A stretch of 64,000 nt of DNA from an uncultured Candidatus Binatia bacterium (GTDB lineage: Bacteria > Desulfobacterota > Binatia > Bin18). The notes under the pieces are model-generated. The model ran no database searches. It saw nothing but the letters and a program-made list of their open reading frames with translations, and was not told the origin of the DNA. Each line of letters begins with the position of its first letter. Position 1 is the stretch's first letter. The position numbers were made by a program, and so were the translations under genes. This document shows positions 1,593-7,633 of this stretch, in pieces. The stretch is from positions 3,488,001 through 3,552,000 of the forward strand of contig OZ243961.1 in NCBI GenBank assembly GCA_965214605.1, in the 5' to 3' direction.

Positions 1593-1636
1593 GCTCGAAG
1601 AGACCAAGCCCGAGGAAACGCAAAGGAGAGCGGTAT

Positions 1637-2464
1637 ATGGCAGACCAGAATTATAGTCGGCCTGAGATGCTGGTTGAGACCGACTGGCTGGCCGAGCATC
1701 TCCAAGACGCCAATCTGTGTGTCGTTGACTGTGATAACCGTGAGGCCTACCGCCGGGCGCATATTCCTGGGGCGCTGATGTTTCGCGGCCACCACTATTT
1801 AAAAGAAAAAGAGGGGGCGCTGCACCTTATGGGGCCCGAGCAGTTTGCCGAAACCATGGGTGGAGCGGGGATCGGGGATGATACTGTGGTAGTTGCCTAC
1901 GACGGATTCAGTGGGCTGTACGCCACCCGTCTATGGTGGGCGCTCAACCATTATGGCCACACCCAGGTCACTGTCCTAAACGGCGGCTGGGACGCTTGGT
2001 TAGCCGAAGGACGGCCGCTGACGAACGCGCCCGCCAAACGCGCCCCGGCGCGTTTTAGCCCGCGAGTGAATGAGGAGTTGATCGCCCGTTGGGACTATGT
2101 CCAGGACTTGATCGCTCAGCCCAACCGGGTGCTGCTCGATGTACGATCTGACGGTGAATGGACCGGGGAGAACGCACGGGGCACAAAGCGGGGGGGACGT
2201 ATCCCTGGCGCCGTTCATCTCGAATGGCTGAACGCTGTTGATAATCAGACCAAAAAGTTTAAACCCGCCGCCCAACTGCGAGCCATGTTTGCTGAGGCCG
2301 GAATCACCCCTGAATCAGAAGTCGTCACCTATTGACAGGGTGGGATCCGTGCGGCGCACGGACTCTTTAGTCTGCGTTTAGTCGGTTTTGACAGGGTTCG
2401 GAACTATGACGCCTCGTGGGCCGAGTGGGGCAATCGGGAAGAATTACCCCTCGAAAAGGACTAG
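1637..2464 (+). CDS. Two-domain rhodanese/3-mercaptopyruvate sulfurtransferase (SseA-like) with in-frame TGA (2333-2335) at the catalytic position; probable selenoprotein of 275 aa
   Basis: HIPGA, LNGGWDAW, LLDVRS and GRIPGAVH motifs. After TGA the frame continues QGGIRAAH...VRNYDASWAEWG (rhodanese C-terminal signature) to TAG 2462-2464. Confidence 0.88.
2342..2365 (+). promoter_or_regulatory. Candidate bacterial SECIS hairpin
   Basis: TCCGTGC (2346-2352), loop GGC, GCACGGA (2356-2362): a perfect 7-bp stem starting at +11 after the TGA, with a G-first apical loop. Extendable by GGG/CTC with a bulged A. Confidence 0.7.
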
Positions 2465-2679
2465 CGAGTGAGGAAGGGAATTGCCGCTAGGGCGAGGGCA
2501 CCGGCGGCGAGAATAGCCCCGATCCCCCAGGCCGGTGCCCGGTGACGGTCGAGCGCCGCGCCACAGTAGATGCATTCGGACAGAAACGAGCCACCGGTCA
2601 CATACACCCGGTTCCACTTGTGGCACACCGAACACCAGGGCTTTGGACGCCCTTGAAAAAAAGTCGCGAACTGAACCAT
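2461..2679 (-). CDS. Small zinc-ribbon-like protein with C-terminal transmembrane helix (72 aa)
   Basis: CSVC...CIYC followed by hydrophobic WGIGAILAAGALALAAIPFL. Its stop shares the CTAG (2461-2464) with the read-through sulfurtransferase stop. Confidence 0.55.
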   Translation of the reverse strand: MVQFATFFQGRPKPWCSVCHKWNRVYVTGGSFLSECIYCGAALDRHRAPAWGIGAILAAGALALAAIPFLTR

Positions 2680-2764
2680 AAACGCTATCCTTACTAGGAA
2701 GGTCAGTTCCAGACTAGCATACACCGGTGCCAGCGTCGAGGTCGGGGAGTCTACCACTGCCCCT

Positions 2765-3601
2765 TTAGCGACGCTTTTCCGCTCGGTGCTGCTTTGTGAG
2801 GTGGGGGGCCACCACGGCCATGAGTTGGGGATGAAGGAGGCGGTTACTGGCAACGAGTCCTTGGAGCAGGGTGGTGACTTGGTTGAAGAGTACCGGCTTT
2901 CCGCCCAGGGTGGTGAGCATGCCTCCAGCCTCTTCGATCAGCACGGTGCCAGCACACAGATCCCACTCATTCTTTGGCACGAGGGTAAAAGTCGCGTCGG
3001 CCTCACCCTTGGCAATTGTGGCTAGCTTATGCGCCATGCCACCGGCTGGCCGGACGTGAAACAGAGACCGAAACGGCCTCCATTCGCCCCGTTTTGTTTC
3101 TGAGCGGCTAGACAACACCGTCGCATCGGCCAAACGCTCCGTCGGGCTAACGCGCAGCGGTATATCGCCTGTGGCGGCCTCTGTTTGGACCCAAGCCCCC
3201 TGGCCGCGCACGGCCCACACCAACTCGTCTAGGGCCGGGTAGTAGATGACACCCAGGAGAGGCCAACCATCCTCAATCAGGCCGATTGAGACGGCGAACT
3301 CGGGGATTTTGTCAATAAACTCTTTGGTCCCGTCAAGCGGGTCAACAACCCACACGCGGCGCTTGGACAGCCGGGTTGGGGAATCGATGGTTTCTTCTGA
3401 CAACCAGCCGTCGTGCGGAAAGGCGTGGTGGATCATCCGATGGATCTCGTAATTGGCCTCGCGGTCGGCAACGGTGACCGGGCTGTCGTTGTGTTTGTAC
3501 TCTACGCGATAGTTCGTCTCATACAGCGCCCGAATCAGCGCGCCAGCCGCACGGGCAGCAGACATGGCCGTAGTTTTTTCGTGCTCCAGCCGGTCTGTCA
3601 T
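2765..3601 (-). CDS. cysQ: 3'(2'),5'-bisphosphate nucleotidase CysQ / inositol monophosphatase family
   Basis: SPVTVADREAN, LSEE, WVVDPLDGTKEF and EWDLCAG motifs. Confidence 0.8.
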   Translation of the reverse strand: MTDRLEHEKTTAMSAARAAGALIRALYETNYRVEYKHNDSPVTVADREANYEIHRMIHHAFPHDGWLSEETIDSPTRLSKRRVWVVDPLDGTKEFIDKIPEFAVSIGLIEDGWPLLGVIYYPALDELVWAVRGQGAWVQTEAATGDIPLRVSPTERLADATVLSSRSETKRGEWRPFRSLFHVRPAGGMAHKLATIAKGEADATFTLVPKNEWDLCAGTVLIEEAGGMLTTLGGKPVLFNQVTTLLQGLVASNRLLHPQLMAVVAPHLTKQHRAEKRR

Positions 3602-3607
3602 TGGCCC

Positions 3608-4585
3608 TTACATCCCTAAGACATAGGCAAACATGAGCGGGACGACGATTGACGCGTCGGATTCGATGATATAGCGTGGAGTCTCTACTCCAAGTTTGCC
3701 CCAGGTTATTTTTTCATTCGGTACTGCTCCTGAATACGAGCCGTAGCTAGTGGTCGAATCGCTGACCTGACAGAAGTAACTCCACAACGGAGTTTGGGTG
3801 CGGTGAAGATCTTGAATTAACAGCGGGACCACGCAGATAGGGAAATCTCCGGCAATACCCCCGCCGATCTGATAAAAGCCGAGGGCGCTTGTCCGGCACC
3901 CCTCCTCATACCAGTCGGCCAGAAAGGTCATGTACTCGGTGCCGCTGCGGACCGTCTGGGGGCTTTTGAGCTTGCTCGTTATACAATGGCTGGCAAATAC
4001 ATTACCGGTGGTTGAATCTTCCCACCCCGGCACCACAATGGGCAGATTTTTCTCCATAGCGGCCATCAGCCATGAATCTTTGGGATCAATCTGGTAGTGG
4101 GCCTGCAAGGTGCCGGAGCGTAAAATCTGATAGAAGTATTCGTGCGGAAAATAGCGCTCGCCCCGTTGTTCGGCCTTGAGCCACACGTCGAGGATGGCCA
4201 TCTCTACCCGTCGCATGGCCTCATCTTCGGGAATGCAGGTGTCGGTGACCCGATTCATATGTCGTTTGAGCAGGTCGGCCTCCTGGGCCGGGGTGAGGTC
4301 GCGGTAGTGGGGCACGCGTTCATAGTTGTTATGGGCGACTAGGTTAAAGACATCCTCTTCGAGATTAGCTCCGGTGCAGGATATGGCATGCACGCAGTCT
4401 TGGCGGATCATCTCGGCTAGAGACAACCCGATTTCCGCCGTACTCATGGCGCCAGCCATTGCCAGCAGCATCTTTCCGCCTCGGTCGAGGTGCCGCTTAT
4501 AGCCGTCTGAGGCCTCAATTAGGCTGGCTGCATTAAAATGACGGAAGTGGTGTTTGAGAAAGTCAGTCACCGGCTGGCTGCTCAT
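3608..4585 (-). CDS. Deoxyhypusine synthase-like protein (probable homospermidine synthase)
   Basis: MAGAMSTAE, CTGANLEED, QIGGGIAGDF, DSTTSYGSYSGA and NEKITWGK motifs. ATG 4585 follows AGGAG. Confidence 0.88.
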   Translation of the reverse strand: MSSQPVTDFLKHHFRHFNAASLIEASDGYKRHLDRGGKMLLAMAGAMSTAEIGLSLAEMIRQDCVHAISCTGANLEEDVFNLVAHNNYERVPHYRDLTPAQEADLLKRHMNRVTDTCIPEDEAMRRVEMAILDVWLKAEQRGERYFPHEYFYQILRSGTLQAHYQIDPKDSWLMAAMEKNLPIVVPGWEDSTTGNVFASHCITSKLKSPQTVRSGTEYMTFLADWYEEGCRTSALGFYQIGGGIAGDFPICVVPLLIQDLHRTQTPLWSYFCQVSDSTTSYGSYSGAVPNEKITWGKLGVETPRYIIESDASIVVPLMFAYVLGM

Positions 4586-4663
4586 ACGCTCCTGCCTCCT
4601 TCGAACAAGCTGGGTTTGGTCGCCTCGGATCACCCACAGGCTAGCATCATGCCTCCGCACCAG

Positions 4664-5692
4664 CTAGCCCGAACTATCCTCATTGGCGCAGGATGCTGAC
4701 CGGTCGAGGCAGGCGCATAACAGCTCGACAGCAGCCTGGGAAGAGGGCTCAGCACAAGCCTGGCGGAGGAGCCGTCCCTGGGGGGTCGCCGCCAGGGCAG
4801 TTCGCATCAGACGCTGAAAATCGAACTGGGTCCGGGGACGGATGCGGTATAGCAGCCGGAGGAGGGCCAGCCGAAGAGCATACGCGTCTACGGCTTCTCC
4901 AACCCGCAGTTCGGGAGGCTGGTAGGCGCGAGTTTCGTTCAGGTAGTGGTCCGTTTCGGCCGGAACGTACTCCCTAATTGAGCGGCCGGCCGCCAGCATG
5001 TCCCGAATGGCGGTGGCTGACAGATCCTTGATCGCACTCGTTGACGCGGACAGGGGAAAAAAGTGGACAGCTGGACCAAAGCCCTGATTTTCCGGCTGGG
5101 CCAGCAGTTGGTAGAAAGCAGTCTGATCCAGCCCGCCCCGATTCGCGACGATCAGACAGGCCAGGTCGAACAGCTCGTGGAGGGCGGCATCTCTATCTTG
5201 ATAATAGCGGGGGTCGAGAATCTGTACCAGCTTGTCCATCCCGGTCAGGAAATACAGATTGGTGTCTGCGCCCAACAAACGGCGAAAGGCCTGGGCCTGT
5301 TCGACGTACAAGCCACGGTTGACCAACGCCACGCTTATCGACGATCGGCTCTCGGCGTACAGGGACAGCAGCACTAGGCGATCCTCAAGTCCCAGGCCGG
5401 TCACCCGTTCTTTATCGACGGTAAACGTGGCTAGGCTCAGAAATACCTGATCGAGCTGCCAGGTCCGGCAGACCTGTTCGGCCAGCTGACTGTGGGCCAG
5501 GGTGAGAGGATTGAACGAGCCGCACAGAATACCGATTCGGCGATAGGACTGGGTCGATCCAGACGAAATGACCCGCACCTGGAGTGGTGCGCTAGGGGCT
5601 AGGCTGGTGACGGTCTCACGCAGGGAAAACAGCCGGTCCAGGTCATAGGCCGCCCCTCTGACCTGGACCGGGCTAAGGGATAGCTGGCTCAC
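4664..5692 (-). CDS. Nicotinamide/nicotinate mononucleotide adenylyltransferase-like (NadD/cytidylyltransferase fold)
   Basis: GILCGSFNPLTLAH, FLTGMDK and LSATAIRD motifs. GTG start at 5692 is inferred. Confidence 0.72.
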   Translation of the reverse strand: MSQLSLSPVQVRGAAYDLDRLFSLRETVTSLAPSAPLQVRVISSGSTQSYRRIGILCGSFNPLTLAHSQLAEQVCRTWQLDQVFLSLATFTVDKERVTGLGLEDRLVLLSLYAESRSSISVALVNRGLYVEQAQAFRRLLGADTNLYFLTGMDKLVQILDPRYYQDRDAALHELFDLACLIVANRGGLDQTAFYQLLAQPENQGFGPAVHFFPLSASTSAIKDLSATAIRDMLAAGRSIREYVPAETDHYLNETRAYQPPELRVGEAVDAYALRLALLRLLYRIRPRTQFDFQRLMRTALAATPQGRLLRQACAEPSSQAAVELLCACLDRSASCANEDSSG

Positions 5693-5818
5693 ACTCAAAG
5701 TTCTCCACGGTCGAGAGCTTATAGTCCTGCGGCTGGTAGGGCAAGTTATTGAGGTTGGGTCGCGGTGGGGTGGCCTTCCTGATTGACCGGGTCTTCTCCT
5801 CCGTGATAAGGTCTGAGA

Positions 5819-7633
5819 ATGTCTGCACGGCTGCGGTCGGGGGCGCCTTTGTGGCTCTCCATTCTCCTTTTTGGCAGTGTGTCCGTGCTGTCGGCCTGTT
5901 CTGCCCACCGCCCTGCTCAGCCATCTCGTCCAGCCTCCGCTCCTGTCCTCGCGCCGATGGGGCACACCATCCCGGGTAGCCCGGTCGCTCTTAGCCCTAA
6001 GGAGCGTGCCCTAGCCCATTTTCTCAAGAGCCGCGTGGCCCAGATGCGCGGCGATTATGACACAGCGGTGAGCAGCTTGGCCACAGCAGTCGAACTCGAC
6101 CCCGATACGTCCCTGTTACGCTTTCGCTTGGCCAAGCTGTACGTTCGGATGGGCAAGACCGACCTGGCCCTTCAACACTGTCGGATTGTTGTCGAACAAG
6201 AGCCCAAGGATCTTGAGGCTCAGATGTTTTTGGCTGGTCTGCTGTCTTCGACGCGTCAGGAAGACGAGGCCGCGGCTGTCTATGAAGCCGTCCTTGCGGG
6301 GCAGCCTGATAGTCAAGAACCGTATCTATATCTGGGGACCTTGTACGCCACGCAAAAGCGCTTTGAAAAAGCTGCTGAGGTGTTGTCGACCCTGGTCGAG
6401 CGCTATCCGCGTTCGCTGCTGGGCTATTATTACCTGGGCCAGATTTCGGCTACGGCCGGTCAGCTTGACACGGCCGAAACCTACTACAAAAAGGCCCTAT
6501 CGCTGAACGAACGCTCGGAAATGGTGATGCTCGACCTAGCGCTCGTGTATGAGATGCAGGATCAGGTTGACCGCGCCCGTGAAACCTATCAGCAGGCGCT
6601 CGACTACAACCCCGACAGCGAACAGGCGCGCAAACGTCTGGGACGCTTATTGCTTGAGGAAAAAGATCTCGATGGCGCCCTGGAGCAGTTTCGCGAGTTG
6701 GAAAAGATCCAGGAGAGGATTCAGACCGATCCCCAAGAGACTCGGCTGCGTATCAGCCTGATTTACAGCGAAAAAGGTGAGTACGACCGGGCGATCACCG
6801 AGTTGAATCTGGTCTTGACCGCCCAACCCGACAACAGCCAGGCTCGCTACTTTCTGGGCGTCATTTTGACCGAAGCCGAGGAATACGACAAAGCCGTCAC
6901 TGAGCTGCTGAAGATCTCGGACGATACCGACTACTACGCCGATGCGCGTTTGTATCTGAGCTATATCTATCGGCGCCAAAAGAAGCTGGCCCAAGCGATT
7001 GTTGAGGCCGAGCATGCCTTAAGGGTGAAAAAGGATGACCTTGAGGTAATGGAATATCTGGTCGACCTGGAGCGAGAGAACGGTAATCGCTCCCGGGCGA
7101 TTGAAATTCTCAAAAAAATGATCAGCTTGGTCTCCACCAATGACGTCTATCATTTCACTCTAGGAGTGCTCTACGGCGAGCAAAAAGAGCAAGACCTCTG
7201 TGTTGCCTCTATGCAAAAAGCGATCGAGCTCAACCCCGAGAACTCCGCAGCCCTAAACTACCTAGGCTATACCTGGGCCGAACAGGGGATCTACCTCGAT
7301 GAGGCCGAGCATCTGATTCGCCGGGCACTGAAGGTTGAGCCCGACGACGGATTTTATATCGACAGCCTAGGCTGGGTGTATTACCAGCGTGGGCAGTATC
7401 ATGAAGCCGTCAACTACTTAGAGCGGGCTATTGAACTGGTCAACGACAACTCGACCATCAGCGAGCATCTGGGCGACGCGTACCAGAAGGTCGGCAGAAT
7501 CAGCGAGGCGTCCCGCTTTTATCGGGCAGCCCTGGATCAGGCGACCGAGAACGCTCAGCGTCGACGCCTGCGAGAGAAGATTGCCACGCTGGCCCAGCAC
7601 GGTCAGGAGAGGCGTTCTTCTGAGCTTGAATAG
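5819..7633 (+). CDS. Tetratricopeptide-repeat lipoprotein
   Basis: Lipobox LSAC, many TPR units, and C-terminal ALNYLGYTWAE...YIDSLGWVYY...EHLGDAY. Confidence 0.88.
   Translation: MSARLRSGAPLWLSILLFGSVSVLSACSAHRPAQPSRPASAPVLAPMGHTIPGSPVALSPKERALAHFLKSRVAQMRGDYDTAVSSLATAVELDPDTSLLRFRLAKLYVRMGKTDLALQHCRIVVEQEPKDLEAQMFLAGLLSSTRQEDEAAAVYEAVLAGQPDSQEPYLYLGTLYATQKRFEKAAEVLSTLVERYPRSLLGYYYLGQISATAGQLDTAETYYKKALSLNERSEMVMLDLALVYEMQDQVDRARETYQQALDYNPDSEQARKRLGRLLLEEKDLDGALEQFRELEKIQERIQTDPQETRLRISLIYSEKGEYDRAITELNLVLTAQPDNSQARYFLGVILTEAEEYDKAVTELLKISDDTDYYADARLYLSYIYRRQKKLAQAIVEAEHALRVKKDDLEVMEYLVDLERENGNRSRAIEILKKMISLVSTNDVYHFTLGVLYGEQKEQDLCVASMQKAIELNPENSAALNYLGYTWAEQGIYLDEAEHLIRRALKVEPDDGFYIDSLGWVYYQRGQYHEAVNYLERAIELVNDNSTISEHLGDAYQKVGRISEASRFYRAALDQATENAQRRRLREKIATLAQHGQERRSSELE

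Follow-up and report, generated by a model that had tools for sequence, protein, structure and literature searches.

In the available part of the Sargasso Sea study of 2005 (PMC1088965), 'Rhodanese-related sulfurtransferase, COG2897' appears as a new selenoprotein family, represented by three sequences with a predicted selenocysteine insertion sequence (SECIS), and 'Sulfurtransferase COG2897' is also listed in the accessible sections of an Olavius-symbiont paper (PMC1976440) and of the GOS paper (PMC2398784). The excerpted text of a 2022 review (PMC9312934) places 'COG2897 (SseA)' under 'Predicted' families, and that of a 2026 review (PMC13188914) gives the rhodanese-related sulfurtransferase COG2897 the motif UxxG. 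Here, we describe a rhodanese gene at positions 1637-2464 (+) of a 64,000-nucleotide stretch of DNA, hereafter the window, which is C1:3488001-3552000 of the 4.37-Mb assembly (99.99% complete; G000 in coordinates below) of a Candidatus Binatia metagenome-assembled genome (MAG). Judged by its class and motif, this gene is a Candidatus Binatia member of the selenoprotein family predicted since 2005; a preliminary description of the same DNA was correct in recalling that rhodanese-like proteins with selenocysteine (Sec, U) had been predicted before.

We consider it very probable that 1637-2464 forms a single gene whose product is a two-domain rhodanese of 275 residues resembling the thiosulfate sulfurtransferases (TSTs), in which the catalytic Cys is replaced by Sec and the Sec codon is decoded through SelB and an adjacent hairpin. 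On the comparison of homologues, what looks like a premature stop is almost certainly a codon for selenocysteine at the catalytic site of the enzyme. As far as the published excerpts describe them, the COG2897 selenoproteins are alike in being of the tandem-rhodanese/SseA type, in having Sec at the catalytic Cys within a UxxG motif (here U-Q-G-G), in having a SECIS directly downstream with a G in its apical loop, and in having many Cys homologues; for them, as for the window gene, the evidence is all computational. Orthology with the representatives AACY01016424, MQG53192.1 and MCY3690685.1 was inferred from COG/Pfam class and motif only. The window copy differs in coming from Candidatus Binatia, and a literature search combining Binatia with selenoproteins gave nothing relevant among the matches listed.

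For the RNA element, the natural comparison is with fdhF of Escherichia coli, for which Liu, Reches and Engelberg-Kulka are said to have defined, in 1998, a minimal 17-nt upper stem-loop lying 11 nt from the UGA. The window hairpin shares with the fdhF SECIS its length of 17 nt, a 10-nt spacer, G residues in the apical loop and a location inside the coding sequence, but it is a perfect 7-bp stem with a GGC triloop, has no bulged U and is of unrelated sequence.

The in-frame UGA and the protein around it

As called, the open reading frame (ORF) covers 1637-2335 and closes with the TGA at 2333-2335 after ...EVVTY. Beyond this TGA the frame stays open for 42 codons (QGGIRAAH...NYDASWAEWGNREELPLEKD) up to a TAG at 2462-2464, and when it is read through the active-site motif becomes Y232-U233-Q-G-G236-I-R238. 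The features of the gene are as follows.

1623..1628, + strand: Shine-Dalgarno-like AAGGAG, 8 nt before the ATG, read from the sequence
1637..2464, + strand: full coding sequence of the predicted Sec-containing tandem rhodanese, 275 aa with U233, translated with TGA as U; stop TAG 2462-2464
1679..2005, + strand: N-terminal rhodanese domain (PF00581, 62.9 bits, G000:C1:3489679-3490005), presumably non-catalytic
2093..2431, + strand: C-terminal, predicted catalytic rhodanese domain running across the UGA (PF00581, 56.1 bits, G000:C1:3490093-3490431), with one TGA inside
2333..2335, + strand: in-frame UGA, read as Sec (U233), in the alignment column of the catalytic Cys
2336..2461, + strand: 42 codons after the UGA, taken as translated from their conserved amino acids, for the rest of the active-site loop, a helix and the last strand
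2346..2362, + strand: predicted SECIS hairpin UCCGUGC-GGC-GCACGGA, arms 2346-2352 and 2356-2362, loop 2353-2355, spanning codons 237-242 (I-R-A-A-H-G)

The rhodanese stop shares the letters CTAG (2461-2464) with the stop of a convergent ORF, 2461-2853(-). This overlap, the ORF stop, the 42-codon extension and the hairpin at +11 had been pointed out in the preliminary description, and all are present as claimed. That description had also called for a check of the reads at 2333-2335. Contigs from three public runs (two studies), which possibly include the source sample of the assembly, span 2200-2500 with zero differing letters and show TGA, not TGC or TGT; given this identity, the TGA is therefore not an assembly slip. 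Contigs of a further run (X6) covered that stretch incompletely and do not enter this comparison.

We searched 41 genomes with the read-through protein. An orthologue with exactly one TGA, at 69-89% protein identity, was found in the genome itself, in 23 of the 24 genomes of the same family and in the sole genome of the same order; the same-family exception (G023) is 84% complete and lies in 1,250 contigs. The same search found the TGA form in none of the 15 other genomes of the class. Further copies, at about 40% identity, have no stop. The TGA falls in one alignment column in 25 of 25 loci, the five paralogue loci all have Cys there, and in the alignments with 1UAR, 8K55 and 3HZU this column is the Cys that opens the active-site loop. 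When three collections were pooled (the 41 genomes, genome contigs and metagenome contigs), 188 loci matched and 180 reached the site, where 134 have TGA, 45 Cys and one Ser. Since these collections overlap, distinct 54-nt stretches were counted as well, giving 100 TGA and 41 Cys forms. The TGA loci come from at least two phyla, and among them are Dehalococcoidia/Chloroflexota proteins no more than 45-56% identical. In each of the 64 distinct aligned sequences, the UGA is followed by C.

One same-family genome has, besides its 74% orthologue, a second TGA copy at 55% identity (G015:C21:87024-87836), and thus some Binatia carry two Sec-rhodanese genes, one of which resembles the Dehalococcoidia type. 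A Planctomycetota MAG holds a form at 36% identity (locus L115) with TGA at the same catalytic column and different downstream sequence, which may be an independent Sec form with a SECIS of its own.

The part of the frame that follows the UGA is conserved as protein. Beyond the hairpin there is synonymous turnover among the 25 orthologues (five codons at L+13 and four each at R+14, G+17 and V+21), and nine residues from the UGA onwards do not vary among 52 homologues: C233 (in the place of U), Q234, G236, R238, A239, Y257, S260, W264 and N266. By this codon-level comparison, the 42 codons after the UGA are translated and under purifying selection.

The genome also encodes the apparatus that such decoding needs. 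Three proteins score above their curated cut-offs, namely selA (583 bits against 268), selB (382 against 242) and selD (388 against 125), and a tRNA-SeC with anticodon tca adjoins selA. The selD gene has one in-frame TGA itself, in the context AAG-U-AGK, and so belongs to the selenoprotein genes in its own right. Genome-wide reassignment of TGA is ruled out: elsewhere it is an ordinary stop, at which 14 of the window's 34 long non-overlapping ORFs end. Two further observations concern other in-frame TGAs of this genome. In selD (locus L015, G000:C1:1899798-1900724 (-)) a hairpin GGUCC-GGC-GGACC lies about 12 nt past the UGA; its loop, GGC closed by C-G, is that of the rhodanese hairpin, a possible clue to what SelB recognises in this organism. 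A separate locus (L006, G000:C1:3941756-3942046 (-)) encodes one rhodanese domain that contains two TGAs in frame (motif LY-U-T-U); the frame then continues into a long C-terminal part that looks by eye like a nucleotide cyclase, and further on a hairpin with the loop CGGGU can be folded. A UxU form of rhodanese selenoproteins is mentioned in the available part of PMC1976440.

The hidden selenoprotein proposed in the preliminary description, with Sec at the rhodanese catalytic Cys, thus agrees with the 134 TGA loci among 180, with the Sec machinery and with the selected tail. The search for selA, selB, selC and selD and the alignment of Cys/TGA pairs that it had suggested both came out in its favour, and what it had named as grounds for rejection is not what we see: the machinery is present, the contigs read TGA, and the relatives keep both TGA and hairpin.

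As to the kind of enzyme, Pfam finds two Rhodanese domains (E 4e-35). The top solved relative is the Thermus thermophilus rhodanese 1UAR at 168 bits, followed by the Mycobacterium and Azotobacter TSTs (133-147 bits) and bovine rhodanese (126-130 bits), with the 3-mercaptopyruvate sulfurtransferases (3-MSTs) at 105-111 bits. The best NCBIfam match is an SseA-type model over residues 10-274, and the NCBIfam 3-MST model NF008557 gives 143 bits, below its cut-off of 250. An AlphaFold model built with 52 homologues (pLDDT 96.2, pTM 0.94) superposes on 1UAR with a TM-score of 0.91 and a root-mean-square deviation (rmsd) of 1.9 Å, and in it U233 would lie where the catalytic loop of rhodaneses classically is, after strand 228-232 and ahead of helix 237-248. 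In the model, strand 84-88 and helix 94-105 of the N-terminal domain mirror strand 228-232 and helix 237-248 of the C-terminal one. Y88 and D89 are invariant in the 52 homologues, and by analogy with known tandem rhodaneses the N-terminal domain is presumably inactive, with Asp89 at the position equivalent to Sec233.

The loop U-Q-G-G-I-R has Gln at position 2, where the aligned solved TSTs read C-R-I-G/A-E-R. Set against what we take to be the TST loop, C-R-x-G-x-[RT], it agrees at positions 1 (Sec for Cys), 4 and 6, and it does not fit what is presumably the MST loop, C-G-[ST]-G-V-T. The rhodaneses and TSTs 1UAR, 3HZU (M. tuberculosis SseA), 3HWI/3AAX (CysA2/3) and 1E0C (A. vinelandii RhdA) have the same two-domain fold (TM 0.87-0.91, rmsd about 2 Å) at 30-36% identity (E 2e-48 to 1.5e-37), with the catalytic residue at the same loop start and an Arg at loop position 6; the window protein differs from them in having Sec rather than Cys and Gln rather than Arg at loop position 2. 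The 3-MSTs (E. coli SseA 1URH, human MPST 4JGT/3OLH) share the tandem fold and the overall length and score lower. The sequence scores support a TST-like tandem rhodanese, closer to the thiosulfate sulfurtransferases than to 3-MST. The label 'MST-type' in the preliminary description is not supported, with TSTs and rhodaneses at 126-168 bits against 105-111 for the 3-MSTs, the shortfall on NF008557 and the loop mismatch.

If the gene works as we propose, Sec-tRNA(Sec) delivered by SelB would decode the UGA at 2333-2335, SelB itself being recruited by the 17-nt hairpin at 2346-2362 through a putative contact. By analogy with Cys rhodaneses, the selenolate of U233, in the cradle loop U-Q-G-G-I-R, would take a sulfane sulfur from thiosulfate or a persulfide-type donor, an Se-S intermediate of the enzyme would form, and the sulfur would then pass to a thiophilic acceptor. 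The N-terminal domain, with its Asp89, would be structural.

The hairpin downstream of the UGA

The preliminary description had placed a SECIS directly 3' of the UGA. The hairpin found there is a perfect 7-bp stem with a 3-nt loop, 17 nt in all, whose first base is the 11th after the UGA, and the UGA-to-loop distance is 17 nt. The bSECIS model has about 16-37 nt from UGA to loop and a G in the apical loop; the window element is a stem-loop directly 3' of the UGA with a G in its apical loop GGC, as is expected of a SECIS. When a comparable hairpin is defined as a perfect Watson-Crick stem of at least 7 bp with a loop of 3-8 nt, starting 8-14 nt after a TGA, one follows 505 of the 138,038 TGA triplets of the genome (0.37%; both strands, any frame), so that the hairpin is beyond what chance would provide. 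The 17-mer and its 13-nt core each occur once in the 4.37-Mb genome.

The stronger evidence is comparative. Codons +4 to +9 (ATC CGT GCG GCG CAC GGA) are without a synonymous change in 25 of 25 orthologues, whereas the degenerate codons +1 to +3 and +10 to +41 each use two to seven synonymous codons, and those upstream vary too, except for Tyr -1, which has a single codon. The distinct 54-mers divide as follows.

TGA forms, 100 distinct 54-mers: of the 7 stem pairs, 7 can form in 85, 6 in 13, 5 in 1 and 3 in 1; 13-nt core CGUGCGGCGCACG in 95
Cys forms, 41 distinct 54-mers: of the 7 stem pairs, 1 can form in 4, 2 in 6, 3 in 19, 4 in 9, 5 in 2 and 6 in 1; 13-nt core CGUGCGGCGCACG in 0

The sole TGA form with three of seven pairs is the distant Planctomycetota form with its other downstream sequence (L115), which for this divergence was also excluded from the alignment of 64 distinct sequences in which the stem pairs were examined. 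In this alignment, 98.2% of the 448 cells are paired, compared with 14-71% in slid controls, and RNAalifold recovers a 6-bp core. Stem pair 2 is C-G in 62 sequences, A-U in one (L103) and G-C in one (L109), which amounts to two compensatory double changes; at one further stem pair, G-C has become G-U once. The changes at pair 2 also reach the protein. Residue 242 is Gly (GGA), and in L103 and L109 it is recoded to Val (GUA) and Ala (GCA) respectively, with matching changes in codon 237 that keep the pair; from this, RNA pairing seems to constrain residue 242. Pairing is not kept in L183 (Val, with a U-U mismatch at that pair) or L167 (Ala, five of seven pairs).

Loss of the UGA can be followed in close relatives. 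A metagenome contig (L146) carries an orthologue at 73% identity with TGT (Cys) at the site, in which the 5' arm and the loop are intact and the 3' arm has become GCATGCA, as though Sec had recently given way to Cys and decay of the SECIS had just begun. The protein collection, too, has full-length Cys proteins at 72-73% identity (P0003, P0005 and P0006). Contigs from other organisms in the metagenome runs agree with the window across about 2318-2367 only and diverge on both sides, and summed contig depth over the UGA and hairpin rises several-fold in runs X1, X4, X5 and X6 (about 40-fold in X4). In those samples, many organisms share the nucleotide sequence of the UGA and hairpin as an island of identity.

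Across these comparisons, the hairpin is, in its codon and pairing pattern, under RNA-level selection; it is tied to the TGA and decays in the TGT/TGC forms. The SECIS of the preliminary description is borne out in the same way, the hairpin being frozen at synonymous sites in TGA forms only, and the decoding mechanism can be regarded as well supported by comparison.

Weighing the alternative readings

A number of points weigh against the reading of the gene as a SelB-decoded, TST-like Sec-rhodanese. Support for Sec at residue 233 is computational throughout (the 14 runs listed included no RNA run), identity with the published COG2897 representatives rests on class and motif and not on sequence, and the chemistry is taken over from Cys rhodaneses. 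The fold of a 76-nt stretch is unremarkable (z = -0.99), and the hairpin is absent from its minimum-free-energy structure. When 2250-2470 was scanned against Rfam with E up to 10, no SECIS family came up, only two chance-level matches (ClpQY_promoter and Six3os1). The hairpin with its CTCTTTAG tail fits a simple terminator pattern in the window. Finally, four of the seven stem pairs are invariant and covariation is confined to one pair; the case for constraint on the RNA therefore comes mainly from the frozen synonymous sites and the contrast with the Cys forms. Shorter folds give lower scores (z = -1.90 for 40 nt; -13.6 kcal/mol and z = -2.85 for 29 nt), but single-sequence folding is by itself weak evidence, and the weight comes from comparison.

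The alternative that survives best concerns the role of the protein and keeps the same gene and decoding: the enzyme might serve selenium trafficking, for example by carrying Se(0) as an Se-Se adduct towards SelD. The available part of a review (PMC9369223, citing Ogasawara 2001 and Melino 2003 for rhodanese and selenium) states that, in vitro, selenium is bound 1:1 by Cys rhodaneses in perselenide form and that rhodaneses have been proposed as Se donors for selenophosphate synthesis. We nevertheless regard such a role as unlikely here: the rhodanese gene (3.49 Mb) is far from selD/selB (1.90 Mb) and selA/selC (3.62 Mb), no conserved Se-related neighbour occurs in the 14 loci examined, and close Cys-form orthologues exist, suggesting chemistry without need for Se. 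We infer, by analogy, that the enzyme transfers sulfane sulfur via an Se-S intermediate, selenium delivery being less likely. A joint proposal can also be framed, in which the Sec-rhodanese is a dedicated chalcogen shuttle, for sulfur and maybe for Se to SelD, rather than a speeded-up version of a Cys enzyme, and in which the SECIS, whose 13-nt core is the same in Binatia and Chloroflexota although the proteins are only 45-55% identical, spread horizontally with the gene and dictates residue 242. This, too, we hold to be doubtful.

A second alternative keeps the full-length protein and questions the residue. The UGA could be read through not, or not only, as Sec, either by near-cognate insertion of Cys or Trp or with selenium supply regulating how much truncated and how much full-length product is made. 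Sec insertion is always in competition with release factor 2, and a C after UGA, as in all 64 sequences, is a weak termination context. However, the hairpin is coupled to the TGA and decays in Cys forms (L146, L094 and L104-L108), a coupling that a SelB-dependent mechanism predicts and SECIS-independent readthrough does not, and the genome has the full Sec machinery. On this balance, we consider readthrough of this kind improbable.

The remaining two alternatives would end the protein at the TGA, and the conservation of the tail as protein excludes both. A recent nonsense mutation or assembly error, leaving a pseudogene cut at codon 233 with a remnant frame downstream, could appeal to the gene callers and public databases in which the protein stops after 230-235 residues (about 67 of the 120 clusters listed) and to the existence of Cys-type homologues, but it has next to no chance and is, on the conservation data, already refuted: the TGA column is kept in 134 loci of at least two phyla, the 42 downstream codons are conserved as amino acids with synonymous turnover, three runs of two studies have the TGA, a tblastn search of the genome finds no Cys-type tandem copy that could step in, and the TGAs of relatives, drawn from NCBI, ENA, JGI and Logan, are unlikely to be the artefact of one pipeline. 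Equally far-fetched is a true stop, with the hairpin and a T-rich tail as an intrinsic terminator and a 232-residue protein without the catalytic loop, for whilst a simple scan does list 2346-2362 plus CTCTTTAGTC, that scan gave four sites against 3.0 +/- 1.8 in shuffles, orthologue tails are not T-rich (e.g. CTGTTCACCCTG or TTGTTCACCCTG), the frame past the hairpin is conserved as protein, and the 232-residue product would, going by the structural model, be missing the active-site loop together with the final helix and strands.

Neighbourhood, history and meaning of the gene

The genes around the Sec-rhodanese in the window are these.

2-487, + strand: epimerase fragment
447-1592, + strand: ORF for a luciferase-like monooxygenase (LLM)
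2461-2853, - strand: small conserved ORF of 130 residues with no Pfam match
2765-3601, - strand: inositol-monophosphatase-family gene
3608-4660, - strand: deoxyhypusine-synthase-like gene
4664-5965, - strand: cytidylyltransferase-like gene

The ATG at 1637 lies 44 nt past the stop of the LLM ORF (TAA 1590-1592), a spacing that makes co-transcription of the two likely, and the gene order of the window recurs in many Binatia. In three loci (L057, L050 and L052), however, an enoyl-CoA hydratase gene lies directly upstream of the rhodanese gene, with the LLM gene beyond it in L057 only, and a locus of the same genus at 89% identity (L049) has no LLM gene within its 4-kb flanks. In Dehalococcoidia, the gene has unrelated neighbours (DUF3090, PHP, acyl-CoA enzymes, Rho, aconitase and others). 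A functional link between the LLM oxidoreductase and the rhodanese, which the preliminary description had entertained as a partnership in Se/S transfer, was rejected, since their adjacency holds in part of the Binatia only and is absent in L049 and in Dehalococcoidia. As far as gene order can tell, the arrangement is lineage synteny with no conserved operon partner. The convergent ORF 2461-2853(-), in which Cys pairs and hydrophobic stretches can be seen by eye, has tblastn matches at 43-76% identity near the rhodanese gene in many Binatia loci, and because of this recurrence it is probably a real small gene.

A tblastn search of the whole genome with the rhodanese protein, at E up to 1e-3, returned the gene itself only, so that no tandem rhodanese besides the Sec enzyme was detected here. 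A second copy of Cys type, at about 40% identity, is present in all seven genomes of the same genus (G001-G007). In a maximum-likelihood tree built quickly from 91 rows (loci L019-L127), from which high-scoring segment pairs shorter than about 240 residues and identical proteins had been dropped, a clade of 71 rows (SH-aLRT 97) comprises 66 Sec and five Cys forms. All 49 Binatia-type rows fall in one all-Sec clade (support 100), and four Dehalococcoidia Cys forms are nested among Sec forms. The tree requires at least five changes between Sec and Cys; it is unrooted and so gives them no direction, and the placement of L109 and L115, both on long branches, is unsafe.

In public records, the Binatia proteins are entered as 230-235-residue products named 'sulfurtransferase' or 'thiosulfate/3-mercaptopyruvate sulfurtransferase'; about 67 of the 120 best clusters end at the UGA and none of the 120 is named a selenoprotein. 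The first consequence of these findings is therefore a correction of annotation, since such entries are without their catalytic loop, and the same error extends across a large clade of bacteria from soil, groundwater and marine settings (Binatia and Dehalococcoidia). The gene leaves the range of known selenoprotein kinds unchanged. What it offers is a clean comparative case of a SECIS in a coding region, frozen where the site is TGA and decaying where it is TGT or TGC, and it makes the use of selenium in a sulfur-transfer step a testable question for a family that, in the excerpted text of PMC9312934, stands only as 'Predicted'.

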